Below are positions 3,355-64,000 of a DNA stretch of 64,000 bases, one piece after another. Position 1 is the first letter of the stretch, and every line of letters begins with the position of its first letter. The notes under the pieces are model-generated. The model was not told the DNA's origin and ran no database searches. It saw only the letters and a program-made list of their open reading frames with translations. A program made the translations under genes and the position numbers. This stretch comes from Mobula hypostoma (taxonomy: Eukaryota), in contig NC_086108.1 in NCBI RefSeq assembly GCF_963921235.1, positions 14,880,001 to 14,944,000 of the forward strand. The letters run 5' to 3'.

Positions 3355-3975
3355 TTGAGTAATAAACAGTTTGGTGGAGGAACAGTGTGTCAGGCACTAT
3401 CTATGTAGGGAAATGAATGATCAATGTTTCGGGCTGAAAGCTAGAGAGGTGATAACCAGTATAAAGTGGTGAGGGGAAGGAGTGGAGCAGAAGCAGGCAG
3501 GTGATAGGTGGATCGAAGTGAGGAGTGGTGATAGTCGATGGGGAAATAGGGACAGAGACTGGGGGTGATCAGAGGAGGTAACAAAGGACTGCAGATGATG
3601 GACTCTGACAGGAGAGACAGGTGGATCATAGAATCAAATAAGGAAGGTGGTAAGGGCAGATGGGAACAGTTGGGGGAAGGGAACCAGTGACCTACCAATC
3701 ACTGTCTCATCCTCCCTCTGTTGTGGCAATCTTTCCTATTGCATCTCAGTCCTGATACTGGGATTCAGCCTGAATGTTGACCTATACTTTTTGCCTCACC
3801 AATGCTACTTGACCTGCCAAGCTCTTCCAGCGTTCTGTGTTTAGTTCCAGATTCTAACATCTGTAGATACAAGAGACTCCAGATGCTGGAATCTGGAGCA
3901 ACACACAAAATACTGGAGGGACTCAGCAGATCAGGCAGCCTTGTGGAGGGAAATGGACAGTTGAGCATCAGCAGT
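3355..3975. mobile_element. Decayed Penelope-derived fragments in both orientations
   Basis: Similar to the tails at 8535-8665, 41217-41650 and 62965-64000; degenerate hammerhead-like remnants at ~3420 and ~3751. Confidence 0.55.
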
Positions 3976-5039
3976 TTCTTTTGTTCTTCTCAGATGAAGC
4001 TGCAAGGTCCAAGACGACCTTAGTCTTCACAAGTTGCTGACTATTGGTAGTATATTGCTTTGATTATTATCGTACCAAGATGCGGTGAAAACATTGTTTG
4101 CATGCCATCTTGACAGATTATTTCATACACAGTATGGAAAAAGACATGCAGAATAAAGTGTTACAATTACAGACAAAATGAGGTGCAGGTAGACAAGTGA
4201 AGTGCAAGGGCCATGGCGATGTAGATTAGGAGGACAAAAGTTCATATATAGCAAATGGGAGGTCTGTTTCTGTTCAAGAGTCAGAGGAGAGATGAATAGA
4301 AGTTATCACTGAGCCTGGTTGTATGTGTTCCCAAGCTATCGTATCTTCTGCCCAAGGAGATGGGGGAGAAGAGTGGAAGTCCAGGGTTAGAGCAATCATT
4401 GATCCTGCGGGTTACTTTCATGGGAGAGCTGGAAGTATAAATGGCGTTCATGAAGGGTAGGCTGTTTTTCATGGGGGACTGGTCTGTGTTCACAACTTTC
4501 TGCAATTTTTCATGGTATCTCCTGCATGATGGGAGAGAGAAGAAATAATGACCAGGGAGAGAGTCCCTGATTATGCAAGAGAAGGAACAAGCACATGCAC
4601 TTGAAATGTGTGATCCCAAACACCATCTCCTCTGATGGCAGAGGTAGCCAGCTCACAGGAAGAGGAGAACAGATATATGTCCCAATACTCACCCTCCCTG
4701 CAGTTTATTGAACATTAACAAATGGTTTGAGAACAAGAGCCGCTATACTCCCCAGAGGTCAGAGAGTGGCTCTGAAGAATTTCTCTGCATGTGGCAAAGT
4801 GTGAGGACATTGGCGAAAGGTAAAGAGAAGCTTAGGATGCACCTTCTCTCTCCCAGAAGAGAGACTGCAGACTCAGGAGCCCAGGTAACAGAGCTCTCGG
4901 AAAACATAGAACATCCCTACCACTGGGGACGCAGTCAGTCATAGTCTGGGAACAACGGCAACAGTGACCTTCACCAGTTCATCAATGTGGCTAAAAGGGG
5001 ATGCAGATCTCAACAACCATGGCCTTTGACTACATCGTG

Positions 5040-8532: not shown

Positions 8533-8568
8533 GTCCTGACGAAGGGTCTTGGCCTGAAACGTCGACTG
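8533..8568 (+). ncRNA. Minimal type I hammerhead ribozyme motif
   Basis: gtc-CTGACGA-agg..cct-GAAA-CGTC|gac: conserved core, short stem II, palindromic ACGT stem III, as known for Penelope pLTRs. Confidence 0.7.
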
Positions 8569-8665
8569 TACCTCTTCCTAGAGATGCTGCCTGGCCTGCT
8601 GCGTTCACCAGCAACTTTGATGTATGTTGCTTGAATTTCCAGCATCTGCATAATTCCTGTTGTTT
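8535..8665 (+). mobile_element. 131-bp Penelope-derived insertion with 12-bp TSD
   Basis: Direct repeat ACATTACAGTGT at 8523-8534 and 8666-8677; body matches 41521-41650. Confidence 0.8.
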
Positions 8666-9730: not shown

Positions 9731-12700
9731 CTGGATGTGTTTCAGACTGTCTAAGTGGAGAGCTTGGAGAGCCTCCTCACTTGGTAATGCTTGGGTGTCA
9801 TTCTAAAAGTCACAACCTCTTTGATGATCTTTAAACTTTGTAGGTCTCTATACAGTATGGATCTAATTCTTTTAGATCAATGACACCCCCCCCTTAGCAC
9901 TATGTATTGATCTGTTGTCTGCACATTTGCAGTTGTCTACGCATGTGCCTTGTTCTCTCTCTCACTGCAATGTGACTACATCAATTAAAGCCATCTCACG
10001 CGTGCATGTTTTTATTTAATCGATATGTAGTTGTGCACAGACACACAAGTTGTTGACAAGTACGAACCTGAATGTCAGGAAATATCATGAACTGCTCCAA
10101 CAGTTATGGGATGAAACAGCATGGAGAAGGTTGTCACAGATGCTAACAAAGGAATGCATGAGTAACTGCCTGCTTAGTACACAGTGAAAGACACACTGAA
10201 TTTAAAGTGAAAATAACATAGTGACAGCTTCAGTTGGGAAAGTTGATGAATTTGATAGTGCTAATGATGGCTGGGGATCATATATCGAGAGAGTGGAACT
10301 GTATTGTAATGCAAACAATGTGGAGGAGCAAAAGAAAGCCCCTACACTTCTTTGTTTAATGGGTGCAAGAGCATACAGTCTCGACACCCCTGCAAACCCA
10401 GCTTGCAATTGTGATAATTTTACAAAATCACTTGAGCCCTAAACTGCAAGTAATAGCTGAGAGATTTAGATGTTACATGATCAGATATGGAGACGTCATG
10501 TGGACCAGATACTGGATGCTCAACCAAAGAACACACCTGCGTCGATTACATCCAACAAGACTGACACATTGCACTCACTGGACTTACCTCTCAGTGATTT
10601 TGTCACTGACAACAATGTGACTCCGGAAACCAAGAATGTTGTCTTAGACAAGACACCTGCCACACCCAGTGCCGCTCCACATTCGATCATGGATGTCAGC
10701 AAGTTAGACTGGCAGGAAGAATCTAAAAAGAATACAGCTTTATAGAGCAGGCGCCAGAGGAGTGGTCATCAGGGCAGAGGGAGTCAGAGTAGGAGGGCTT
10801 TGGTAATAACAGGTCAAGGCAAGGTAAGTTAGCTGTGAAGAATAGGAATAGGAAGTATGTCTGCTGGGCCGGTGTTCTGCACGGAGTGTCGGATATGGGA
10901 TGTCCGGGAGAGTCCCAGCCTCCCGGACAGCCACATGTGCGCCAGGTGTATTGAGCTGCAGCTCCTTAGGGACTGGGTTAGGGAACTGGAGATGCAGCTT
11001 GATGACCTTCGTCTGGTCAGGGACAGTGAGGAGGTGATAGATAGAAGCAATAGGCAAGTAGTCACACCGGGGCCTTGGGAGACAGTTAAGTGGGTAACAG
11101 TCAGGAGAGGGAAGGGCAAGAGTCAGATGCTAGAGAGTATCACTGTGGCTGTCCCCCTTAACAATAAGTACTCCTGTCTGAGTACTATTGGAGGGGACGA
11201 TCTATCTGGGAGAAGTAACAGTGGCCGTGCCTCTGGCACAGAGTTTGGCCCTGTGGCTCAGAAGGGTAGGGAAAGGAAGAGGATGGCAGCAGTGATAGGG
11301 GACTCTATAGTCAGGGGGTCAGACAGGCGATTCCGTGGACGCAGGAAAGAAGCACGGATGGTAGTTTGCCTGCCATGTGCCAGGGTCCGGGATGTTTCTG
11401 ATCGCGTCCAATATCCTGAAGTGGGAAGGTGTAACAGCCAGAGGTTGTGGTACATATTGGTACCAACAACATAGGTAAGGAAAGGGAGGAGGCCCTGAAA
11501 ACAGACTACAGGGAGTTAGGAGAGAAGTTGAGAGAAGCAGAAACTCAAAGGAAGTAATTTTGGGATTACTGCCTGTGCCTCGCAACAGTGAGCATAGGAA
11601 TAGAGTGAGGTGGAGGATAAATGCGTGGCTGAGGGATTGGAGCAGGGGGCAGGGATTCAGATTTCTGGATCATTGGGACCTCTTTTGGGGCAGGAGTGCC
11701 CTGTACAAAAAGGATGAGTTGCACTTGAATCCGAGGGGGATCAATATCCTGGCGGGGAGGTTTGCTAAGGCTACTGGGGAAAGTTTAAACTAGAATTGCT
11801 GGGGGGGGGGTGGGAACTGAACTGAAGAGATGGAGGAAGGGGCAATTGGTTCACAAATTGAGAAAGCTTGTAGACAGTGTGAGAGGGAGGATAGGCAGGT
11901 CAAGTCAAGTCAAGTCATTTTTTATTGTCATTTCAACCATAACTGCTGGTACGGAACATAGTAAAAATGAGACAACATTTTCCAGGACCATGGTGCTACA
12001 TGAAACAATACAAAAACTACACTGAACTACGTAAGAAAAAACACAAAAACTACACTAGACTACAGTCCTATCCAGGACAGCATAAAGTGCACAAAACAGT
12101 GCAGGAATTACAATAAATAATAAACAAGACAATAGGCACAGTAGAGGGCAGTAGGTTGGTGTCAAGCCAGGCTGTGGGTATTGAGGAGTCTGATGACCTG
12201 GGGGAAGAAACTGTTTCATAGTCTAGTCGTGAGAGCCCGAATGCTTTGGTGCCTTTTTCCAGATGGCAGGAGGGAGAAGAGTTTATATGAGGGGTGCGTG
12301 GGGTCCTTCATAATGTTGTTTGCTTTGTGGATGCAGCGTGTGGTGTAAATGTCTGTGATGGCGGGAAGAGAGACCCCGATGATCTTCTCAGCTGACCTCA
12401 TTATCCGCTGCAGGGTCTTGCGATCCGAGATGGTGCAATTTCCGAACCAGGCCGTGATGCAGCTGCTCAAGATGCTCTCAATACAACCTCTGTAGAATGT
12501 GGTGAGGTTGGGGGGGTGGGAGATGAACTTTTCTAAGCCTTCGCAGAAAGTAGAGACGCTGCTGGGCTTTCTTTGTTATGGAACTGGTGTTGAGGGACCA
12601 GGTGAGATTCTCCGCCAGGTGAACACCAAGAAATTTGGTGCTTTTAACGATCTCTATGGAGGAGACATTGATGTTCAGTGGAGAGTAGTCGCTACATGTC

Positions 12701-12773: not shown

Positions 12774-15700
12774 TTGGTGAGTAGGGTAAAGGAAAACCCC
12801 AAAGCATTCTTCAATTATGTGAAGAAAAAAAGGAAGACAGGAGTGAAGGTAGGACCGATTGGAGATAAAGGTGGGAAGATGTGCCTGGAGGCTGTGGAAG
12901 TGAGCGAGGTCCTCAATGAATACTCTTCGGTATTCACCAATGAGAGGGAGCTTGATGATGGTGAGGACAATATGAGTGAGGTTGACATTCTGGAGCATGT
13001 TGATATTAAGGGAGAAGAGGTGTTGGAGTTGTTAAAATACATTAGGATGGGTAAGTCCCCGGGGCCTGATGGAATATTCCCCAGGCTGCTCTACAAGGCA
13101 AGGGAAGAGATTGCTGAGCCTCTGGCTAGGATCTTTATGTCCTCGTTGTCCACGGGAATGGTACTGGAGGATTGGAGGAAGGCGATTGTTGTCCCCTTGT
13201 TCAAAAAAGGTAGTAGGGATAGTCCGGGTAATTATAGACCAGTGAGCCTTACGTCTGTGGTGGGAAAGCTGTTGGAAAAGATTCTTAGAGATAGGATCTC
13301 TGGGCATTTAGAGAATCATGGTCTGATCAGGAACAGTCAGCATGGCTTTGTGAAGGGCAGATCGTGTCTAACAAGCCTGATAGAGTTCTTTGAGGAGGTG
13401 ACCAGGCATATAGATGAGGGTAGTGCAGTGAATGTGATCTATATGGATTTTAGTAAGGCATTTGACAAGGTTCCACATGGTAGGCTTATTCAGAAAGTCG
13501 GAAGGCATGGGATCCAGGGAAGTTTGGCCAGGTAGATTCAGAATTGGCTTGCCTGCAGAAGGCAGAGGGTCGTGGTGGAGAGAGTACATTCAGATTGGAG
13601 GATTGTGACTAGTGGTGTCCCACAAGGATCTGTTCTGGGACCACTACTTTTTGTGATTTTTATTAACATCCTGGATGTGGGGGTAGAAGGGTGGGTTGGC
13701 AAGTTTGCAGATGACACAAAGGTTGGTGGTGTTGTAGATAGTGCAGAGGATTGTCAAAGATTGCAGAGAGACATTGATAGGATGCAGAAGCGGGCTGAGA
13801 AGTGGCAGATGGAGTTCAACCCAGAGAAGTGTGAGGTGGTACACTTTGGAAGGACAAACTCCAAGGCAGAGTACAAAGTAAATGGCAGGATACTTGGTAG
13901 TGTGGAGGAGCAGAGGGATCTGGGGTACATGTCCACAGATCCCTAAAAGTTGCCTCACAGGTAGATAGGGTAGTTAAGAAAGCTTATGGGGTGTTAGCTT
14001 TCATAAGTCGAGGGATAGAGTTTAAGAGTCGCGATGTAATGATGCAGCTCTATAAAACTCTGGTTAGGTCACACTTGGAGTACTGTGTCCAGTTCTGGTC
14101 GCCTCACTATGGGAAGGATGTGGAAGCATTGGAAAGGGTACAGAGGAGATTTACCAGGATGTTGCCTGGTTTAGAGAGTATGCATTATGATCAGAGATTA
14201 AGGGAGCTAGTGTCATGGTCCGGATCGGAGTCCCTTTAAATTTACCTTGTTTATGTTACAATCCGGACTGTTGATTCCCTGTTTTCCCATGTCCCTCGAC
14301 TTTGGTGATTAGAGGCAATTAACACTCGGCTGAACCAGTAGTTTATAGTCTCCGGCTTTCAGCCATTGGGTGCAAGAGCGTCTGCAAAGTCATCCAAGGT
14401 ATGGTTTGACGATGTCATCTGGCCGGAGCAAGCCTAGTTTCTGCCGAAGCGAGTGCCGGTAATTCGCCTCTCCTCACCGGAGTAACCCTATCCAGTTACC
14501 TCTCCAAAGCGAGCCTGAAAAGTTTCCTCACTGAGGTGGGTCCGTCAGTTAACCCGCCGAAGGGAATCAAGAACCGCTGTCTACTGTTCCCGGGCCGAGT
14601 CGAGAGCTCGCCACGACCCGAAGGCTCCAAGTCAAGTCCTGGCTCCGGCGGCATTCTAGCACCAAGTCAAGTCCTGTCCCTGGCGGCTTCCCAGTTCTGA
14701 GTCAAGTCTTGGCCCTGGCGGTCTGTGATTCCTGACCTACCCCCTTGTCTGAATCCCTTCTCTGCCCCTCTCGCCTCTAGCCCTCGTCTGCAGCCCCGCC
14801 TGCACTTCGGTCTAGTTCCATCACCGGAGCTAGATAGGTACTGTCTGGTGTTCATTCATGTTGGTCTTGTCTTCTCTTGTCTTGTTCTCACCTCCGTGGG
14901 GTAAGTCAGGCCGTCTTGCCATTGCCCCGCGGAGTGTCATGAGTCCCGGCCCTATGTCCTGTACCCAAGGAGGGGTCCCGGCTCTCTGTTCTGTGTGTGA
15001 ATCCCGGCCCTATGTCCTGTACCCAAGGAGAGGTCCTGACTCTGCGTTCTGTGTATGTGTCCATGGTTCCATGTACCTGCTCTCCCGAGACCGAGGCCCT
15101 GTGTTCCCATGTTCCTTCTCTCCCTAGCCCATGTCATGTCCATGCCTGGTTCTGGGATCCAAGCCCGAGGCAAGACCCAGGTACTAGGTCCTTGCCCAGT
15201 CTCTGGCTCGGAGTCCATACCCTAGCCTCTTCATGTCTCCTCCAGTTCTGGAAGCCGATTCCGAGTCCAAGCCCAGACCCCTAGTCCCAGCCTAGTCGTA
15301 GTCCTGAATCCTTGTCCAGTTCGCTATTTCCTGCTCCTGCCTTGCTCTCCTGGTATCAAACAATAAACTAAATCTAAGTAACCTCACAAGATGTGTCTTG
15401 CATTTGGGTCCACCCTTGCTCCCAATGCCCCCGCCTCTGTGACAGCTAGGGCTTTACTCTTTGGAGAGAAGGAGGATGAGAGGAGATATGATAGAGGTGT
15501 ACAAGATAATAAGAGGAATAGATAGAGTGGATGGCCAGCGCCTCTTCCCCAGGACACCACTGCTCAATACAAGAGGACATGGCTTTAAGGTAAGGGGTGG
15601 GAAGTTCAAGGGGGATATTAGAGGAAGGTTTTTTTACTCAGAGAGTAGTTGGTGCGTGGAATGCACTGCCTGAGTCAGTGGTGGAGGCAGATACACTCGT

Positions 15701-15837: not shown

Positions 15838-18800
15838 AGCCACTGCATCTCCTCTCTGTATGTTGTCTCATCATTCTTGCTGATGAGACCCACCACGGTC
15901 GTGTCTTCGGCAAACTTGATGATGTGGTTCAAGCTGTGTGTTGCAGCACAGTCGTGGGTCAGCAGAGTGAACAACAGTGGACTGAGCACACAGCCCTGGG
16001 GGGCCCCTGTGCTCAGTGTGATGGTGTTGGAGATGCTGCTACCAATTCGGACTGACTTGAGTTCTCCCAGTCAGGAAGTCTAGGATCCAGTTGCAGAGGG
16101 AGATGTTCAGGCCCAGTAGGCTCAGCTTTCCAATCAGTTTCTGAGGAATGATTGTGTTGAATGCTGAACTGAAGTCTATGAACAGCATTTTCAAGTACGT
16201 GTACATGATAATGAAGGGATGCGCTCAGACTGATGGCTTGAGATGCGTCTATTTTAATGCAATGAGTGTCATGAACAAAGCAGATGAGCTTAGAGCGTGG
16301 ATCAGTACTTGGAGCTATGATGTTGTGGCCATTACAGAGACCTGGATGGCTTGGGGCAGGAATGGCTACTTAGAGTGCCAGGCTTTAGATGCTTCAGAAA
16401 GTACAGGGAGGGAGGCAAAAGAGGTGGGGGCATGGCACTGCTGATCAGAGATAGTGTCATGGCTGCAGAAAAGGAGGAAGTCATGGAGGGATTGTCTACT
16501 GAGTCTCTGTAGGTGGAAGTTAGAAACAGGAAGGAGTTAATACTCTACTGGGTGTTTTATTATAGACCACCCAACAGTAGCAGGGACATCAAGGAACAGA
16601 TAGGGAGACAAATTCTGGAACAGTCCAGTAATAATGGGGTTGTCTTGATGGGAGATTTAAATTTCCCCAATATTGATTGGCATCTCCCTAGAGCAAGGGG
16701 TTTAGATGGGGTGGAGTTTGTTATGTGGGTTCAGGAAGGTTTTCTGACACAGTATGTTGATAAGCCTACAAGAGGAGAGGCTGCACTTGATCTGGTATTG
16801 AGAAATGAACCTGGTCAGGTGTCAGATCTCTCAGTGGGAGAGCATTTTGGAGATAGTGATCACAATTCTATCTCCTTTACCGTAACATTGGAGAGGGATA
16901 GGAACAGACAAGTTAGGAAAGCATTTAATTGGAGTAAGGGGAAATATGAAGCTATCAGGCGGGAACTTGGAAGCATAAATTAAGAACAAATGTTCTCAGG
17001 GAAATGTATGGCAGAAATGTGGCAAATGTTCAGGCGATAGTTGCGTGGCGTTCTGCATAAGTATGTTCCAATGAGACAGGGAAAGGATGGTAGGGTACAG
17101 GAACCATGGTGTACAAAGGCTGTTGAAAATCTAGTCAAGAAGAAAAGAAAAGCTTATGAAAGGTTCATAAAACTAGGTAATGATAGAGATCTAGAAAATT
17201 ATAAGTCTAGCAGGAAGGAGCTTAAGAATGAAATTAGGAGAGCCAGAAGGGGCCATGAGAAGGCCTTGGCAAGCAGGATTAAGGAAAACCCCAAGGCATT
17301 CTGCAAGTATGTGAAGAGCAAGAGGATAAGACGTGAGAGAATAGGATCAATCAAGTGTGACAGTGGAAAAGTGTGTATGGAACCAGAGGAGGTAGCGGAG
17401 GTACCTAATGAATACTTTGCTTCAATATTCACTATGGAAAAGGACCTTGGCAATTGTAGGGATGACTTACAGCAGACTGAAAAGCTTGAGCATATAGACA
17501 TTAAGAAAGAGGATGTGCTGGAGCTTTTGGAAAGCATCAAGTTGGATAAGTCACCGGGACTGGATGAGATATATCCCGGGCTACTGTGGGAGGCGAGGGA
17601 GGAGATTGCTAAGCCTCTGGCAATGATCTTTGCATTATCAATGGAGATGGGAGAGGTTTGGAGGATTGGAGGGTTGCAGATGTGGTGCCCTTATTCAAGA
17701 AAGGGAGTGGAGATAGCCTAGGAAATTATAGACCAGTGAGTCTTACCTCAGTGGTTGGTAAGTTGATGGAGAAGATCCTGAGAGGCAGGATTTATGAACA
17801 TTTGGATTAGGAATAGTCAGCATGGCTTTGTCAAGGGCAGGTCGTGCTTTACAATCCTGACTGAATTTTTTGAGGATGTGACTAAACACATTGATGAAGG
17901 TAGAGCAGTAGATGTAGTGTATATGGATTTCAGCAAGGCATTTGATAAGGTTACCCATGCCAGACTTATTGAGAACATAAGGAAGGATGGGATCTAAGGG
18001 GACATTGCTTTGTGGATCCAGAACTGGCTTGCTCACAGAAAGCAAAGAGTGGTTGTAGATGGGTCATGTTCTGCATGGAGGTCGGTCACCAGTGGAGTGT
18101 CTCAGGGATTTGTTCTGGGACCCCTTCTCTTGTGATTTTCCTGGATGAGGAAGTGGAGGGTTGGGTTAGTAAATTTGCTGATGACACAAAGGTCAGAGGT
18201 GTTGTGAATAGCGTGGAAGGCTGTCAGAGGTTACAGTGGGACATCGATAGGATGCAAAACTGGGCTGAAAAGTGGCAGATGGAGTTCAACCCAGAAAACT
18301 GTGGGGTGGTTCATTTTCATAGGTCAAATATGATGGAAGAATATAGTGTTAATGATAAGACTCTTGGCAGTGTGGAGGATCAGAGGGAACTTGGGGTCCG
18401 AGTCCATAAGATACTCAAAGCTGCTGTGCAGATTGACTGTATGGTTAAGAAGTCATACGGTGCATTGGCCTTCATCAACTGTGGGATTGAGTTCAAGAGC
18501 CGAAAGGTAATGTTACAACTACATAGGACCCTGGTCAGACCCCACTTGGAGTACTGTGCTCAGTTCTGGTCACCTCACTACAGGAAGGATGCGGAAACTA
18601 TAGAAAGGGTGCAGAGGAGAGTCACAAGGATGTTGCCTGGATTGAGGACCATATCTTATGAGAATAGGTTGAGTGAACTTGGCCTTTTCTCCTTGGAGTG
18701 ACGGAGGATGAGAGGTGACCTGATGGAGGTGTATAAGATGATGAGAGTCATTGATCATGTGGATAGTCAGAGGCTTTTTCCCAGGGCTGAAATGGTTGCC

Positions 18801-19567
18801 ACAAGAGGACACAGGTTTAAGGTGCCGGGGAGTAGGTATGGAGGAGATGTCAGGGGTAAGTTTTTCACTCAGAGAGTGGTGAGTGCGTGGAATGGGCTGC
18901 CGGCGACGGTGGTGGAGGCAGATATGATTGGGTCTTTTAAGAGAATCCTAGATAGGTACATGGAGCTTAGAAAAATAGAGGGCTATGGGTAACCCTAGGT
19001 AATTTCTAAAGTAAGTACATGTTCGGTACAGCATTGTGGGCTGAAGGGCCTGTACTGTGCTGTAGGTTTTCTATGTTCCTATGTTTCTATGTCCAGAGGC
19101 GCGACAAAAACGTTATCATTGACAAGACACCTGCCAAACCTGATGCCACTCCACAGGTCAGAGGTGCTATCCTGAAAGAAACAGAGCACCACTCAAAAGA
19201 CTGAACCTTCAGAACTGTAAAGTTCGTCATAGACTGTTAATGTAAAAGCATGTTTATTTGGAATATGGGTTTATGAAAGGGAAATTGAATGTTTTATACA
19301 TATATAGTTTATGTCACATTAATCTAATGAGGATGAAGTGTAATGTATGGATCTATTTATTTTAGAATGATGACCCCCCACCCTCCCCCCTTTAGAACTA
19401 CGTACTGATCTGTTGTCTGCATATGCACATTGTTCTCCCTCTCTTCCTCTCTCACTACAATGTGAATACAGCAGTTAAAGCCATCTCCTGCATACATGTT
19501 TTTATTTAATTGGTATGTAGTTGTGCACGGACACCACAGTCTCCATCTGATAACTTTCAGAGCAACA

Positions 19568-41650: not shown

Positions 41651-41979
41651 TACTGTCATAACCTTATGCTTTTGTAACAATTGGTGATCTCTCTACAAAT
41701 TTATTTCTCTAAATCCCTAGGACTGTTGGGTGGTCTATAATATAACCCCCTTAAAGTGGTCTCACATTTCCTATTCCTCAGGTACACCCATAACACCTCA
41801 CTAGCTGAGTTCTGCAGTCTGTCCTGACAGAGCACTGCAAAGACATTTTCCCTGACGAGTAACTCTATCCCTCCCCCTTTAATCCCTCCTCCTCTGTCTC
41901 ATCAAAAACAACTGAACACCAAAATATTGAGCTGCCAGGTACAGGAGTCTTTGGTGTTGGCCAACATTTGATTAGTGCA

Positions 41980-42202
41980 TGTTGTGTATGTGGCTGGGTT
42001 ACACAACCAGGCTATAAATAAGAATTCTGGAGACGGAAGATAGGTTAACAGGGTTCTTCACTGACTGAAACCGAACTGAACACACACATACAGATCAATA
42101 CGCGCCTAATAACGCATGCTCAATACGTGCCTAATAGCGCATGCAACAACGTGTCCCTACAACATAAAGTGATCTCATATTATACAGTAGCTATCCAGTA
42201 CA
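41980..42202 (-). repeat. 3' LTR
   Basis: Minus strand begins TGTACTG right after AAAAGGGGAGGAG and ends ACACAACA; homologous to 45850-45999. Confidence 0.85.
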
Positions 42203-42456
42203 CTCCTCCCCTTTTATTTTAATGGTGTATCAACTGTTTTTTTGACTGGGACACTACACTAAACAAGTATGTTTACCCTTCACATACAAACGCCTACTAA
42301 TTGTTTACTTAATAACTTAATAATATCAAATTATAACAAAGTAATGTAATAATATTAAATTATAATAAGCTTTTTTTTAAACTTTTGGTCTAAGACCCAT
42401 TTATAACTCAAGTCTCGGGGGGGGGGGTACTCTGCTCACTGTGCCGTACTTCTCTA

Positions 42457-43257
42457 GGTGATGATTATGTACCAGCAGTAACAGAAGAAATAAGTGAAGC
42501 TCTAGCAAAATTAATCATATTTCGCAAGAGGTGTGATGCATTTTTCATAACTTTGGTCTCCATGGTCTGCTTCAAAGATGACTTGCCACCAACAAAAGAA
42601 GCGCTGTCTCTGCTAGTTATTCAAAAGTCGGGGCAATCCAATGACTCACAGAAAGATCAGTACTTTACCAGTAATCTTTCACCGTTGATGAAGCAGTTGA
42701 TCGAAATCCTGTTGTTTGTTCCATTGTTCTTAAGCTGCTGTTAAAGTACAGTTTTGCTGATATTAAGGATTACCTGCAGAGCTATCTGTCTGAAGTTCAA
42801 CAAAAAACAAATCTTGGTCAAGAAGATGAGACTGAACTCTATGCACTGTTTCTGAATTGTTTGGAGGATTCTATGTATGAAGTTGTTCACAATGCAAGAA
42901 AAGACTGCATACCTGGCTGAAGAGGGAGGATTCCTTCAGATGCACATTCAGCACAAGTGTGAAAATACAACAATAGAAACCTTACAGTTTGTTGCCAAAA
43001 TTTCCCTCTGTTTTGATGCTGTTTCCCAACTTCTTTGTGCAAAACAAGACACATTGGCTGAGGATTCAACACATGTACGTGCAAAAGAAACTTCCCTCCA
43101 AAGGATTAAGTGTATGATTCTCAGTGGAGGAAATGATTGGTTCAAGATTTACCTTGAGCGAAAGCTGTTCTGTTTCAGTGGAATTGATTTTGTCCAAGAG
43201 CTTTTAAGGAATGACCAATTTTCATGGATCTCTCCCAAGGAAATTGTTCAGGAGAAG
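42457..43257 (+). pseudogene. RNF213: Intronless fragment of E3 ligase RNF213 (post-RING region), antisense to the element
   Basis: FRKRCDAFFITLVSMVCFKDDLPP, LSP.DEAVDRNPVV.SIVLKLLLKYSF.DIKDYLQ, ELYALFLNCLEDS, EEGGFL and NDWFKIYL.RKL parallel vertebrate RNF213; frameshifts near 42684 and 42895. Confidence 0.88.
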
Positions 43258-43911
43258 ACGGAGATGCTGGTCTTTTCGGAGATTTAAGCTTATTGAGAGT
43301 CGCAGATCTTCCATTATCCGTTCATCTGTTAACAAGTAACTTAACTGCACAGGTGCAGGTTTTCATCTTTTGTCTGTAATTGGAACAGGGTCATTAGGTC
43401 TCCTCCTTAGTCTCCTAATCATTATTGGCTTTACCTCCACAGAATCTCCTGTGAGTTCCATTGTTAGCCTCTCATTCTCAATCATCTTTTTCTTTTCTTC
43501 TAACTCAATCTTTTCATCTTCAAATTCCTTCACTACTGCTTTCTTCTCTTTAATATAATTCCTTTCCACTTGTTCTGTCTCCAGTTGCAGAAAAAGCTCT
43601 GCATTTCATATTCTTTCCTTGTATTGTTGATCCAGTGTCTTCACCCTTTTCTGATACTCCTGCAAAGTGTCTTCCTGTAACTGCTGTAGCTGTCTTTTGA
43701 GGGATGCCAATTTCTCCTGGTACATCTGCTCTTTTATTTCCAGGTAGTCTTCATCATCCTGCTTATTGGCAATATCCGTCTCCCTTGCATCCTCTGTACC
43801 TTCATCTGAGTCACGGCTACGGATACTGTGTTTGTCCTCATCGTCGACGTTGTCTAGCTCCTCCTCATTGTTGTAATAGCCAACAATGGGTGAGAGGAGA
43901 GCTGCGGACAT
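43245..43911 (-). pseudogene. SUDS3: Intronless 5' part of Sin3-HDAC corepressor subunit SDS3
   Basis: MSAALL...[23 protein letters not shown]...[22 protein letters not shown]...[13 protein letters not shown]...KSPKRPASPSSPE; two TGA stops, one frameshift, 8-codon deletion. Confidence 0.95.
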
Positions 43912-43933
43912 CTTCCCCGCTGAGCTGCCCTCC

Positions 43934-45115
43934 TTTGTTGACACATCTATTGCATTGATGGTGTACCAATCCAACTGGATTTTCCTGAGCCATTCACGTC
44001 CTAGCAACGGTGATCCTCCGTTTTTCAGTACATAGAGGTTCAGCTGCTGTGTTTTGTCTCTGTAGGTCACTGACACTTTAATTTTACCTTTGGGATGCAC
44101 TTTCTGTCCTGTGTAAGTCTTTAGTAGTAGTTTAGTTCGTTTCAGAGGCATGTGAGAAAACAGTCATTTGTAGTCATGTACAGAGATTGCTGTTAAAACT
44201 GAGCCTGTGTCCAACTCCATTTTCAGTCTCACGCCTGCCACTTGTGGAGTGATCCATATTACTCTTTGATCATCTGTCTCTTTCACACTGTGAGGTTGCA
44301 GACAAGACAATTCACCTTTGTCTGAGTCATTTTCATCAGAATTGCTTTCTTTCATTTTGTGCACATTGTTGTATTTTCCTTTCTGGGGTTTCTTGTTTCT
44401 CTGTATTTTGTCCTTTTTCTGCTGTTTACTAGCTTTGCATACTCTGCCAATGTGGCCCTGTTTGCCACAGTTTCTGCATTCTTTATCTTTAACCACAATC
44501 ATCAGGGTCATGTGACCTGTTCCCACAACAGTAACATTTCTTTCCTTCATTTCTGTTTAGTGACATTTTATTTGTGGCATATTCCAGAGATTTTTGTTGT
44601 ATCTCGGAAGCACCTCGTGCGGCTGTTTCCATTGATTTTGCAATGTTCAGCGCCTTCTCTAACGTAAGGTCCCTTTCACACAGAAGCTTCTTCTGTGTGG
44701 TTTCACAGTGCATGCCACACACTAACTTGTCCCTCATTGCGTCCGATAGACCCGCTCCAAATTGACAATGCTCGGATAATTTGCACAATTCAGCACAATA
44801 TTCAGAAATGCTTTCATTTTTGCCCTGATTCCGATTGTGAAATTTAAATCTTTCAGCAATGACCTGTAGTTTGGGGTGTAAATGCTGTTGGAGAGTGTCT
44901 ACTATTTGCTTGAACGTTTTGTCAGCTGGCTTTTCAGGGGTTAACAAGCTCCATAGCAGCCCGTATGTTTTTGCTTCCATAATACTGAGTAAGATGCTGG
45001 CTTTCTTTTCATCATTAACATCGTTAGCATCACAATATAACTTCAGTCTTTCAATGTAAGTTGCCCAGTTTTCAATGCTACTATCAAATGCTGTAATTGT
45101 TCCAATCATCGCCAT
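43934..45115 (-). pseudogene. Gypsy/Mag gag, zinc knuckles and aspartic protease
   Basis: YIERLKLYCDAN...VIAERFKF..RNQ, RDKLVCG, CYCCG..SH..DDC, CRNCGKQGHIGRVC, MELDTGS and LLGREWL; one frameshift ~44490 and a TGA at 44164. Confidence 0.92.
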
Positions 45116-45383
45116 CTTTGTTATGTTAATTTAGTCCCGTTCTCCCTTTTTTTTTGACTCACATGACCTTTTTGCTAGCTCCACGAGTGCACTCCATCTA
45201 GATGTGTGCATGTCACTCCTTTTTATCTCCCTTCTGGGGCAGGCAGACCCTCAGCCCGGGGGTCAGCGCTGGCTGTTGTCTCGCCTGAACTCACTGCAGC
45301 TCCGACTGTGTCTCATGGTCTCCCGACGTTCCCGACCTGCGGCTGTGCTTCCGTTTCCTTTCGGACTCGTGGCCTCGCTCTGC

Positions 45384-45832
45384 CTTGGCTCGTACCTTGT
45401 GCTCTTCATACTCATTCTGAATTTTCTTTGGCCTTTTCTTGTTCAGAATTTCTTCCTCTTCAGGTGGCAGTTTGGCACCCTTCTTCCGACCAAGTGGAAG
45501 GGCAAAGTGAGATTCATACCACTGTCTGAACAATGAGTTCTTTACTAATGTTTTTGTCCTGACCAATTCATTGTTGGAAGCATTGTAAACTACATCAATG
45601 ATCCTGGTCTTCCGTGTACAATATTCGGAACCCCAGGAGTAGTTTCCTGCATCCAACCTCAAAGGGCGATTTTTTTATTTCCACCATGGACTCTCACTGT
45701 GTGGATACGACATGGTCCAATCTTTGTATTTGCAGGAGGACGTTCAAGTTCATATTTTCTCTTTTTATGATATGGCTTCCTTTTACCTCCAGTCTTGCAG
45801 TGTTTGTGCCAATTATTCCAGGACATACCTAT
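45384..45832 (-). pseudogene. RPS8: Intronless 5' two-thirds of 40S ribosomal protein S8
   Basis: [69 protein letters not shown] and [19 protein letters not shown]; start codon reads ATA, frameshift ~45665, short internal deletion. Confidence 0.97.
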
Positions 45833-45849
45833 TCTCAGGTTTCGGCCAC

Positions 45850-45999
45850 TTACACAACCAAGAGGCAAGTTAACAGGGCTCTTTACTGTCCGAAACCGAA
45901 CTGAACACACGCATACCGATCAATACGCGCCTAATAATGCATGCAACGTGTCCCTACAACATAAAGTAGTCCCATATTATACAGTAGCTATACAGTACA
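45850..45999 (-). repeat. 5' LTR, truncated at its inner end
   Basis: Matches 41999-42202 with indels; lacks the final ~20 nt and any PBS, and abuts the RPS8 leader. Confidence 0.85.
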
Positions 46000-48509
46000 G
46001 TGCGGTTTGTGGATTGGTCTCACTTTTAGAGGAGTGCAGTTCATGTCATGTTTTTTTCTGACTTCCAGTTACTCCTCCTTTATTGTCATTTTGTGCGATG
46101 TTGATCAGGGCGTTCTGGATCTGCAGCTTGCAGTCAACAAAAGGAGACAGCGCTAAATTGAACTGAACTGAACCAAACTGAGCTTTCCTAGACTGCTTCC
46201 AGGCTGTGCAGTTATGTTTAATATTCTGGCGTTTGGCGTTCGTGTGATTTGTTCTTTTTTTATGTGTGTGTTGGGTGTTTGATGTTTTCTTTGAGTGGAT
46301 TCCATGCTGGCTGTCTGTGAGATGACAGGTCTCAGAGTTGTATTCTTCATACATACTTTGATAATAAATGTACTTTGGATCTTTGAATCTTTCAATCTTT
46401 GGCCCATGCCTGAGCTCATCTGCCTTTGCTGCAATACTTCTTGCATTGCACTATTCAGAAGATTAATCGCACCATGCTCAATCTTTTGATTCCTGACTTT
46501 GTCTGAGGTCTTAACAACATCTGTCTGCACAACCTCTGCACTAATTGTTCTGGCACTCTGGTTCACATCCCCCTGCAATTCTGATTTAACCCCCCTCCTG
46601 CCAGGCAGTACTAGCAAACCTTCCTGCCAGGATATTAGTTTAGGTGCAAATCGTCCCTTCTGTACAAGTCCCACCTTCCATGGAAGCAGGGATTCCCACA
46701 CTGGGGTTCACAGACCCCTCGTTAATGGTGAGGGTCCACGGCATAACAAAAGGCTGGGAACCCTTGCCAGGAAGAGAGCCCAATGATCCAAAAATATGAA
46801 GACCTCGCTCCTTCACCAACTCTTTATCCACATGTTAAACTGTATGACCTTCCTATTTTTGGTGGCACTAACACATGGTACAGATTGCAATCCCAAGATC
46901 ACAACCCTGGAGGTCCTGCCCTTTAACTTAGCACCTAACTCCCTGAACCTACTTTGCAGGATCTCGTCACTCTTCCTATCTGAGTCATTGGTAGCTACAT
47001 GGGCCATGACCTCTGGCTCACCCTCCCACTTATGAATGCCAAGGACTTGATCCAAGACGTCCCGGACACTGGCACCTGGGAGGCAACATACCATTAGGAA
47101 ATCTCATTCTCATCCACAGAACCTCCTTTTTGTTCCCCTAACTAACAAATCCCCTAACACCACGGTTAGCCTCTTCTCCCCCACCCCCCACTTCCCTTCT
47201 GAATCACAGAGCCAGCCTCAGTGCCAGAGACCTGATCAATGTGTCTTTCCTCTGCTAGGTCATTCCCCCTCCAACAGTATCCAAAGTGGTGTACTTGTTG
47301 AGGGGGATGGCTACAACAGTACTCTGCACTGGTGTTTAAACCCTTTTCCCTTCCTGACTGTTACCCAATTTCCTGCACCCTGCACCATGGATGTAATTAC
47401 CTCTCTATATGTCCTATCTATCACCCCCTTAGCCTCCTGAATTATCCAGAGATCATCCAATTCCAGCTCCAACTCCTTAATTCAGAATGTTAGAAGCTGC
47501 AGCTGGATGCACTTCTTGCAGGTGAAGTTGTATAATGGGAAAATTATTCCCATTATATTTCAAAATCTTGGCTACAGCAGCCAATCAATAACAGTAGCAT
47601 ACAGAACGTCATTTCATCCTTGATGGGTCACTTTTTAATGTCACAAGTTCATCCCCCTGCTCTGCATGTCAAACAGTGTGTCCACAAAGGAATCATTGCT
47701 TCACTCTTTTGGCCATTGGCACATTCCACGTTTGGAAAAATACTGCGATCACAAGTCAGGAGTAATTCTGGGTGTTGTGGAAAAATACCTGAGCCAAAAG
47801 CCTCCTGTGTTTCTCATTATCATCACAGACTTATCAAAGTTTGATAAGAACCCTAGCTTTAGAAGGAAGAAACAACTCCCCCTGCCTCACACACTCTGTA
47901 CATTACAACTGTTCGTGCAAAGACTGTGCACATCAATACTGCAGACACACCAGATATTCTGCTGTTACTATCATAGGCTAGGGAAACAGGAAAACTTTCC
48001 TATACTTTTTTGAAATACCCCATCAATATTCAACAGCCCTTTTGGTTTGTCATTCTGCCTGAAAGAGCACAGCTCCTTGCTGTCAAATGCCAAGTGTCAT
48101 TTTAAATCTGTAGCTTGAGAGCACTGAGTCTCCATGGTGTCCGGGTGGAACCATCTCCCTTGCACAAGATGACGGTGTCAGCCTTTCCCTATCATTCCAA
48201 CTCAATGTCTCTGCCCTTTGGCATTTAATTCACAGTTTTAATGGGAGTGCTATTCATTAATCAGCAGAGAAAAATCTCATCTAATCTTTTGAATTTAGTG
48301 GATAAGCACAATAAAAAGCTGAATGATAATTGATAAGACTGTACACTATTTCAAGAAACAGTTGCAGTGAAGTTTATTCCATGTATTGGTCAGGCTCAGT
48401 TACAGTCTACAAAGAACACATTCAGCCCCAGCATTCAATCAAATGCCATCGTGTTTATTTCTCCCATGTAATCCAATCACCTGTCAAAATAAAGTTGAAA
48501 TAAAAGTCA

Positions 48510-62964: not shown

Positions 62965-63361
62965 AACGCAAACATGAGGAAATCTACAGATGCTGGAAGT
63001 TCAAGTAACACGCACAAAATGCTGGTGGAACACAGCAGGCCAGGCAGCATCTATAGGAAGAAGTACAGTCGACATTTCGAGCCAAGACACTTCATCAGGA
63101 CTAACTGAAAGAAGAGATAGTAAGAGATTTGAAAGTGGGAGGGGGAGGGGGAGATCGGAAATGATAGGAGAAGACAAGGGGGGTTGTGATAGAGCTAAGA
63201 GCTGGAAAGTTGATTGGCAAAAGGGATAAAAGGCTGGAGAAGGGAGAGGATCACGGGACGGGAGGCCTAGGGAGAAAGAAAGGGGGAAGGGTGTACTAGA
63301 GGAAGATGGAGAGCAGGTAAGGAGTTATTGTGAGAGGGATAGAGAGAGAAAAAAAAGGGAA

Positions 63362-63392
<31 letters not shown>

Positions 63393-64000
63393 GGGATGGG
63401 GTAAGAAGGGGAGGAGGGGCATTAACGGAAGTTAGAGAAATCAACATTCATGCCATCAGGTTGGAAGCTATGCAGACGGAATATAAGGTATTGTTCCTCC
63501 AACCTGAGCGTGGCTGGTGTGATATACTGCGGTCGGTGCTCCTGATGCGGCCTTCTATATATTGGCAAGACCTGACGCAGACTGGGAGATCGTTTCGCTG
63601 AACACCTACACTCTGTCCGCCAGAGAAAGCAGGATCTCCCAGTGGCCACACATTTTAATTCCACGTCCCATTCACATTCTGACATATCTATCCAGAGCCT
63701 CCTCTACTGTAAAGATGAAGCCACACTCAGGTTGGAGGAACAACACCTTATATTCCATCTGGGTAGCCTCCAACCTGATGGCATGAACATGGATTTCTCT
63801 AACTTCCGTTAATACCCCTCCTCCCCTTCTTACCCCATCTCATGTTGCTTGCTCTCCATCTTCCACTGGTGCTCCCCTCCCCCTTTCTTTCTCCCTAGGC
63901 CTCCCGTCCCATGATCCACTCCCTTCTCCAGCCTTGTATCCCTTTTGCCAATCAACTTTCCAGCTCTTAGCTCCATCCCTGCCCCTCCTGTCTTCTCCTA
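62965..64000. mobile_element. Penelope-like element with inverted arms, GIY-YIG C-terminus and hammerhead motif
   Basis: Plus frame LYIGKT*RRLGDRFAEHL...PVATHFN...RLEEQHLIFHLGSLQPDGMN; inverted copy at 63422-63515; minus-strand CTGATGA..GAAATGTCGAC at 63068-63098. Confidence 0.85.

Follow-up and report, generated by a model that had tools for sequence, protein, structure and literature searches.

A non-autonomous Ty3/Gypsy element of the ray Mobula hypostoma carrying segments of SUDS3, RPS8, and an RNF213-like gene

Structure of the element and its autonomous relative

The stretch of the Mobula hypostoma genome analysed here (contig NC_086108.1, positions 14,880,001 to 14,944,000 of the forward strand; 64,000 nt in total and hereafter referred to as the window) carries on its minus strand, at 41980-45999, a non-autonomous Ty3/Gypsy long terminal repeat (LTR) retrotransposon, an old and dead copy that includes sequence from RPS8, SUDS3, and an RNF213-like gene. 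Read along the minus strand, this element consists of a truncated 5' LTR, the 5' part of RPS8, a leader, a region encoding gag, zinc knuckles, and protease, the 5' part of SUDS3, an RNF213-like piece in antisense orientation, the tail of pol, a polypurine tract (PPT), and the 3' LTR (Table 1). All of the pieces that an initial annotation, made from the sequence alone, had placed in this order were found, either at the same positions or a few bases away. The closest annotated proteins to the genes in the window come from myliobatiform rays (Mobula, Hypanus, and Hemitrygon).

The two LTRs lie in direct orientation and show 13 mismatches over 150 aligned bases; two features of the 3' LTR, an internal stretch of 27 nt and a tandem duplication of 28 nt, are also missing from the 5' LTR. 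The 3' LTR is a genome-wide repeat in the window's own 3.48-Gb assembly; 1347 first-look candidates (a count of candidates, not of copies) were obtained, and all 40 places scored matched with 86-100% identity. On the plus strand, the element is flanked by GTGCG and GTGCA, which agree at four of five positions and differ only by a CG-to-TG change, as was expected from the 5-bp target-site duplication (TSD) with one CpG-type change that had been proposed for this insertion. On the inner side of the 3' LTR, what is left of the pol end contains a poly-C run and GAGACTTGAGTTATAA, which ends in the pol stop and is followed by an AT-rich stretch and the PPT, AAAATAAAAGGGGAGGAG. The PPT is thus present beside the 3' LTR, and the primer-binding site (PBS)-like motif, TGGCGA..., which is found in copies L032-L042 of the family, is deleted in the focal copy.

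The region encoding gag, zinc knuckle, and protease is 55-62% identical to amino acids (aa) 1-404 of the Gypsy polyprotein P0122, and a protein search with the gag open reading frame (ORF) returned Gypsy polyproteins annotated as "K02A2.6-like" with identities of up to 70%; matches of the focal gag to DUF7083, Retrotrans_gag, and zf-CCHC all fell below the Pfam cut-offs. With the best Gypsy polyprotein as query, full-length relatives were located in the same genome, one of which (L066) has 199-bp LTRs that are 91% alike and the domain order of Ty3/Gypsy elements (gag-asp_proteas, RVT_1, RT_RNaseH, Integrase_H2C2, and rve_3), with all of its domains interrupted by stops. Positions 593-2076 of the focal element (window 45407-43924), which cover leader, gag, zinc knuckles, and protease, align with positions 453-1936 of L066 at 89.5% identity, and positions 3576-4018, which run from the last pol codons through the 3' untranslated stretch and the PPT into the LTR, align with L066 at 79% identity. 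Between these two blocks, there is no match to L066, and approximately 2.7 kb of pol are without a counterpart in the focal copy; the reverse transcriptase (RT), RNase H, and integrase domains, which the initial annotation had described as missing, are indeed absent from the focal copy and are all three found in L066. The same comparison corrects two details of that annotation. The piece that it called an unknown GC-rich sequence (~45400-45131) is the family's own leader, because it aligns with the autonomous L066 at 89.5% identity, and the pol tail, judged by alignment with the end of L066 pol, which terminates in RRYPERQRRPPQRLEL followed by a stop, amounts to ~26 nt in the focal copy rather than ~50 nt; copies that carry SUDS3 only retain ~51 nt.

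Three host-derived segments

SUDS3 follows directly on the protease. The pol/SUDS3 junction, which reads ...GGCAGC/TCAGCGGGGAAGATG, is common to the family, as is the pol tail; directly after the protease, the sequence runs ...GGCAGC/TCAGCGGGGAAG ATG, and SUDS3 continues the protease reading frame. The cargo comprises ~12 nt of the 5' untranslated region (UTR), an ATG at 43911-43909, and ~224 codons (approximately parental residues 1-232 minus 8), and its translation is 77-93% identical to vertebrate SDS3 proteins. The parental gene (G000:C78:8394481-8412318), which was located via a 24-nt stretch that is present in the genuine protein and absent in the cargo, matches element positions 2199-2761 in nine exon pieces with 26 mismatches in 579 bases; eight introns are therefore absent from the cargo. 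The 24 nt that the cargo lacks (encoding KENLIAEL) lie within a parental exon and are flanked by TGAGTT repeats, and, judging from this sequence context, the gap looks like a slippage deletion and not like splicing. Comparison with L066 shows that SUDS3 has replaced the ~2.7 kb of pol, in frame with the protease.

In the focal element, the SUDS3 sequence breaks off 30 bases into one exon and gives way to an 811-nt stretch, coding for an RNF213-like segment on its other strand, that terminates at the pol-tail remnant. This piece matches RNF213 in PDB with an E value of 2e-10 and is collinear with aa 1873-2165 of P0201, i.e., with ~290 aa immediately past the RING finger. Of 150 candidates from a genome search with the piece, 40 were scored, and 25 places other than the focal one matched end to end. 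The SUDS3/RNF213 junction is identical in all 11 loci that were fetched, and in 10 of the 11 the RNF213/tail junction is uninterrupted; the same boundaries across copies imply a single capture, which defines a subfamily. The LTRs of this RNF213 subfamily are 86-90% identical to the focal LTR, compared with 72-82% for SUDS3-only copies.

Several searches were made for the parent of the RNF213-like piece. A 120-nt sub-query gave 133 candidates, and the 40 that were scored were all 93-97% identical, with none distinguishable as the parent; a word-index protein search for longer relatives gave no match; and the RNF213 proteins in a representative library are only 24-37% identical to the cargo. A 355-aa flank of P0201 located three loci, one of which (C2:218.46 Mb) is unrelated to the cargo, one of which (C68:41.28 Mb) is a canonical RNF213 paralog without DNA similarity to the cargo, and one of which (C68:48.84 Mb) showed no cargo similarity within the 9 kb fetched. 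Locus L067 (G000:C2:218463629-218463799) contains an 836-aa open frame with an RZ-finger-like stretch that is 39% identical to aa 2330-2398 of P0201.

The antisense orientation of the piece, together with the failure of these searches to find a parent, would be in keeping with a source other than mRNA, namely genomic DNA, a transcript of a large exon (antisense or read-through), or an older RNF213 retrocopy near the source element; the identity of only 24-37% to RNF213 representatives points the same way in that the parent would have to be a divergent paralog. However, the canonical paralog at C68:41.28 Mb has an intron of ~910 nt inside the span homologous to the cargo, whereas the cargo is collinear (~290 aa in ~840 nt), and the piece replaces SUDS3 within an exon and ends at the pol tail, as the other captures do. 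We consider a non-mRNA source fairly unlikely on this evidence, and the RNF213-like cargo would more probably have been derived from a spliced mRNA.

The RPS8 part matches the Pfam family Ribosomal_S8e in two frames (E values of 2.5e-15 and 3.5e-13). It spans from ~8-10 nt inside the 5' UTR to approximately codon 140 and begins where the 5' LTR stops 19 nt short. The parental gene, on the same contig as the window (G000:C50:80952659-80956937), matches in four exon pieces and differs at 21 of 430 bases; three introns are thus missing from the cargo, which also has a 21-nt internal deletion flanked by TTCAG repeats. RPS8 has replaced the last 19 nt of the LTR (in U5), the PBS, and ~75 nt of the leader; in other copies, the PBS-like motif and these ~75 nt separate the LTR from the point where the leader resumes here. 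Having lost its PBS, the focal copy is unable to prime reverse transcription. At the inner end of the segment, GAAGAGCG is common to RPS8 exon 5 and the leader; this microhomology of 8 nt is located exactly at the switch (~45408-45401). A genome search with RPS8, in which five of five candidates were scored, returned the element itself, the four parental exons, and one unrelated retrocopy; as there is no other element-borne RPS8 in the genome, this capture is private to the focal copy. The divergence of RPS8 from its parent (4.9%; 21/430) is similar to half the divergence between the LTRs (~4.3%; from 13/150), which fits a capture of RPS8 that may have taken place at about the time of insertion. 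Elsewhere in the genome, an intronless RPS8 retrocopy that is 87% identical to the cargo lies outside any LTR element (L044; G000:C21:155149918-155150387 and downstream); this retrocopy retains the mRNA 5' UTR and the whole 3' end and served as read-out of the RPS8 5' UTR.

For RPS8, and for this cargo only, an origin by repair can also be envisaged, in which a double-strand break near the PBS of an already integrated copy was repaired by end joining with an RPS8 cDNA fragment as filler, with loss of the U5 end, the PBS, and some of the leader. RPS8 is private, and nothing shows its transposition with the element; the removal of the PBS is awkward for a completed reverse transcription, the 8-nt microhomology fits microhomology-mediated end joining equally well, and the 5' LTR has the extra 27-nt deletion adjoining the junction. 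By contrast, the 4.9% divergence is close to the expectation for simultaneous capture and insertion, RPS8 is kept nearly to the mRNA 5' end, as would be the case for an RT running off its template, and at least three other replacement captures are found in the same family (SUDS3, RNF213, and, in Hemitrygon, YBX1). Repair of an integrated copy hence appears unlikely as the source of RPS8, and capture during retrotransposition is preferred.

Order of the captures and proposed mechanism

The distribution of the cargos supports three captures that are nested in time, first SUDS3, then the RNF213-like piece, and then RPS8. When the genome was searched with the whole element and 40 places were scored, the protease/SUDS3 junction was spanned in all 39 other copies, RNF213 sequence was present in nine of these 39, and RPS8 was present in none of them, i.e., in the focal copy only. 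In 30 of the 39, the match ends at element positions ~2684-2761, and the copies inspected among these (e.g., L037, L039, and L042) continue the SUDS3 mRNA to the pol tail. Most of the 39 thus contain the complete SUDS3 coding sequence. The SUDS3 copies form a star-like set, and the differences among them are mostly post-insertion decay. Serial capture of host mRNAs, as put forward in the initial annotation, agrees with this nested distribution, with the amendment that two of the three captures took place in ancestors and not in the focal copy. Comparison with the parental loci likewise bore out the loss of introns for RPS8 (three introns) and SUDS3 (eight introns), and for RNF213 the parent was not found.

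Perfect 5-bp TSDs were found in L033, L037, L038, L039, and L040, i.e., in five of the five loci that were readable at both ends among 11 loci examined. These five TSDs are mutually different, and the loci include SUDS3-only as well as RNF213 copies; as cargo-bearing copies have TSDs of their own, the chimeras were transposed as units. The cargo-bearing copies are thus numerous, separately inserted, and joined at the same junctions, in line with the earlier suggestion of a gene-transducing family. Further host cargo was sought in 51 fetched family loci. Twelve internal gaps of 120 nt or more were left unexplained there; none contains a long ORF, and they resemble either insertions by other transposons or untranslated sequence that is shared. 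An element with 34-nt terminal inverted repeats is inserted in the gag of two family copies (982 nt in L016/L035, which represent one genomic place, and 778 nt in L013).

Each cargo replaces element sequence instead of interrupting it, RPS8 and SUDS3 keep their mRNA 5' ends and have lost their 3' ends, and a poly(A) tail or TSD of its own, for which each cargo was checked, was seen at none of the three. These observations contradict an origin of the three host pieces as independent processed pseudogenes that were inserted into the LTR element by long interspersed nuclear elements (LINEs). LINE fragments are common in the window, and the RPS8 retrocopy with a full mRNA 3' end (L044) is ordinary-looking; however, insertion by LINEs would not be expected to replace element sequence exactly, as is seen here for 2.7 kb of pol, for the 3' third of SUDS3, and for the U5 end with PBS and leader, the retention of 5' parts is the opposite of LINE-type 5' truncation, and dozens of copies with different TSDs have the very same SUDS3 and RNF213 junctions. 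This explanation is accordingly given a very low probability.

Unitigs of run X1 bridge both the LTR/RPS8 junction and the 3' flank/LTR junction with 0 differences, although X1 is possibly the assembled sample and is not independent evidence; a unitig of run X6, which has another organism label and comes from another study, bridges the LTR/RPS8 junction with six differences in 178 nt. Bridging was counted with at least 31 nt on each side, and unitigs over the 5' flank/LTR junction, with only 28 nt on the LTR side, were not counted. The bridging by X1 and X6 argues against misassembly, and the X6 unitig suggests that the insertion may be older than the split of the X1 and X6 organisms. A chimeric order produced by an assembly that joined repeats could be suspected, given that all parts but RPS8 are multi-copy and that the Logan contigs over them are short, but in addition to the bridged junctions, the remaining ones are found again in many copies at independent places, and an artefact of this kind is hardly credible.

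We thus propose that this family, very probably, took up SUDS3, the RNF213-like piece, and RPS8 in succession by template switching while amplifying as a non-autonomous element. In a first step, ~2.7 kb of pol (RT, RNase H, and integrase) of an L066-like element would have been replaced by spliced SUDS3 mRNA; the resulting chimera would have kept LTRs, PBS, leader, gag, protease, pol tail, and PPT and could have been mobilised in trans by autonomous relatives to give many copies. In a second step, in one lineage, the 3' third of SUDS3 would have been replaced by the 811-nt antisense RNF213-like piece, and the subfamily would have been amplified again. In a third step, the 5' part of an RPS8 mRNA would have entered during, or possibly after, the retrotransposition that made the focal copy. 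Mechanistically, RT would switch between element RNA and co-packaged host mRNA at short similarities and then switch back; a switch during minus-strand synthesis would give sense cargo (SUDS3 and RPS8), and, as our own proposal, a switch onto mRNA during plus-strand synthesis, or an antisense template, would give the antisense RNF213 cargo. The kept mRNA 5' ends would fit an RT that ran on towards the end of the captured mRNA and only then returned to the element RNA, and the small deletions between direct repeats (24 nt with TGAGTT and 21 nt with TTCAG) would fit slippage by the same enzyme. Template switching itself would account for the order of the parts, the replaced intervals, the two intron losses, the one microhomology, and the nesting, all of which are observed.

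A number of points weigh against this proposal or restrict it. The parent of the RNF213-like piece was not found by sub-query, protein, library, or flank searches, and the true ends of this piece and the microhomology at its junctions rest on that parent; moreover, capture in antisense requires a less usual route. The LTR/RPS8 (5') junction has no clear microhomology, and it lies inside U5, which makes for a product without PBS, for which the second strand transfer would be non-canonical. Microhomology was evaluated at the two RPS8 junctions. Dating by the LTRs is rough because the two LTRs also differ by the 28-nt duplication and the 27-nt deletion, and the first-look candidate counts (1347, 2539, and 150) are not copy numbers. 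Finally, the 11 copies examined and L066 are all broken, with longest open frames of 176-461 aa, and there is no sign of present activity or of a function of the fusion.

Table 1. Coordinates of the parts of the element and of its flanking duplications in the window
Feature	Coordinates	Strand	Remarks
Upstream target-site duplication	46000..46004	.	CGCAC on the minus strand; agrees with the downstream TGCAC at 4/5 positions
5' LTR	45850..45999	-	Without its last 19 nt; starts with TG; shares TGGTTGTGTAA with the 3' LTR
RPS8 5' part, intronless	45401..45848	-	Most of the 5' UTR and ~140 codons; Pfam Ribosomal_S8e; match to parental exons
Element leader (5' untranslated region)	45116..45408	-	Alignment with autonomous element L066
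gag, two CCHC zinc knuckles	44420..45115	-	Stops and frameshifts; 62% identical to P0122 aa 1-209 and 70% to P0121
Aspartic protease region (LDTGS ... LLGREWL)	43924..44290	-	Ends at the pol/SUDS3 junction; tblastn with P0122 aa 211-404
SUDS3 5' part, intronless	43239..43923	-	Pfam Sds3; matches to SDS3 proteins; match to parental exons
RNF213-like coding piece	42428..43238	+	Antisense to the element; carries frameshifts; ~290 aa
pol-end remnant, AT-rich 3' untranslated stretch, and PPT	42203..42427	-	Alignment with the autonomous element
3' LTR, complete, TG...CA	41980..42202	-	LTR comparison and genome search
Downstream target-site duplication	41975..41979	.	TGCAC on the minus strand

The window also contains a second, more distant Gypsy-like element on the plus strand (9849 to ~19545), the LTRs of which are ~77% alike (9849-10046 and ~19339-19545) and which has, as noted in the initial annotation, a perfect 5-bp TSD (GTCTC on both sides). 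This element has a PBS-like motif after its 5' LTR, a fragment of the gag N-terminus (10227-10439) that is 51% identical to P0122, and, almost directly after gag, a pol-end fragment (10486-10535); pol is lost, and the rest of the 9.7 kb consists of other repeats. Among these, a coding-looking repeat occurs twice (12774-13519 and 17266-17999; 74-78% alike and 4.48-4.49 kb apart), probably as a nested LINE-like insertion or a duplication. Just downstream of the focal element, an inverted repeat (41213-41279/41543-41609) with 67-nt arms that are 94% complementary is probably a small non-autonomous DNA transposon or a short interspersed nuclear element; related sequence is found at 63007-63424, at 8533-8630, and as an insertion within family copy L010. 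A search across sequencing runs listed no RNA run containing this sequence. Contigs of run X5, which is only guessed to be RNA, match the focal copy without difference at 42847-42966, 43747-43912, 44585-44702, 45241-45354, and 45965-46100; the matches include the upstream flank, read-through transcription and library DNA are equally possible, and no conclusion on expression is drawn from them.

Known systems, other rays, and implications

Acutely transforming retroviruses represent a well-known system in which a spliced host mRNA replaces replication genes, often as a Gag fusion, and in which the product is defective and helper-dependent; capture of viral oncogenes involves non-homologous or microhomology-guided recombination by RT. 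By contrast with these viruses, the ray element is a Ty3/Gypsy element without env that spread through the germline within a genome, and there is no evidence of a cargo phenotype. In vertebrates, LTR-mediated retrocopies formed by template switching have been described by Tan et al. (2016, Genome Res; PMC5131818), and the kind of event seen here is to that extent less unusual than the initial annotation had held. The cases described in that paper share with the ray element an intronless host mRNA inside a discontinuous LTR element, with part of the ORFs replaced and both LTRs flanking it, as well as cargo without poly(A) tail or TSD of its own and mRNAs that are often partly copied. The microsimilarity at switch points reported there has a median of 6 bp, compared with 8 nt at the one fully evaluable junction here; multi-gene chimeras are also among the cases reported, including a mouse "Super" retrocopy of four genes, compared with three genes here. 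Secondary retroposition of chimeras as non-autonomous elements is described in the same paper (PMC5131818), and in the ray, the junctions occur at dozens of places with different TSDs.

The ray family differs from these cases in several respects. While the cases in PMC5131818 are described with one to few copies, the SUDS3 chimera is present in at least dozens of sequenced copies, with thousands of first-look candidates; the ray family furthermore occurs in several genera and has three time-nested captures, one of them antisense, and it comes from a cartilaginous fish, whereas the vertebrate examples in that paper are from zebrafish, chicken, mouse, and human. A plant parallel is maize Bs1, a copia-like LTR retroelement with parts of three cellular genes that is present in 1-5 copies per Zea genome (PMC5131818); like the focal element, Bs1 is a gag-bearing LTR element without pol that has exonic pieces of three unlinked host genes (PMC5131818). 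Unlike Bs1, the ray family has full-length coding cargo in frame with gag-protease, and its captures can be ordered by their distribution. The mechanism is thus already published, and what appears to be new is that, in a vertebrate, the copies are so numerous and the captures nested in three steps; a literature search found, in the library searched, neither this family nor an animal case with comparable amplification and three time-ordered captures.

Annotated proteins of other rays also bear on the family. In several gene models of Mobula and Hypanus that are annotated as "SDS3-like", the eight residues missing from the cargo are missing as well, and a Hemitrygon akajei model annotated as "Y-box-binding protein 1-like" (P0197) combines the N-terminus of the family's gag, the same protease/SUDS3 junction, ~75 SUDS3 residues, and the YBX1 cold-shock domain. 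From its predicted sequence, P0197 has the appearance of a further type of capture, the fourth, made by this family in a different ray, which suggests that the family may have continued to capture genes in other rays. In P0129, a protein of 498 aa, a gag and zinc-knuckle part that is 60% identical to the focal gag precedes an acidic stretch and C2H2 zinc fingers; either a gag-host chimera of a related family or a fused gene model could account for this arrangement.

In a survey that covered 244 vertebrate genomes, SUDS3 is one of the five parents with the largest numbers of retrocopies in cartilaginous fishes, and retrocopy abundance is tied to non-LTR retrotransposon content and selective filtering (bioRxiv 10.64898/2026.06.26.734816). 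The SUDS3 retrocopies counted there are, going by what the survey reports, very likely the same sequences as the element-borne SUDS3. The SUDS3 copies are embedded in an LTR element that multiplied, and their abundance then follows from movement of this element and not from recurrent retroposition of the mRNA or from selection, a cause that differs from those discussed in the survey and is simpler. To score these copies as separate retropositions or as retrogenes kept by selection would be misleading. The "SDS3-like" and "Y-box-binding protein 1-like" gene models of rays likewise look like copies of the ray element.

It is conceivable, if quite doubtful, that the in-frame fusion of Gag and protease with SUDS3, a subunit of the Sin3-HDAC corepressor, helped the element, e.g., by titrating or misdirecting chromatin silencing in the germline. 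If this were true, it would explain how a chimera without pol outgrew its autonomous parent, persisted across ray families, and gained more host mRNAs; by extension, the retrocopies of the other leading parents reported for cartilaginous fishes (MIPOL1, SDF2L1, SLU7, and ZNF276) would be transposon cargo and not selected retrogenes. As for the family itself, a gene-carrying non-autonomous LTR element can attain high copy number in a vertebrate, compared with the few copies of the animal and maize cases described in PMC5131818. With captures that can be placed on the history of the family and with parents in the same genome, the ray family provides a clearer example of stepwise pick-up of host genes than most animal examples.

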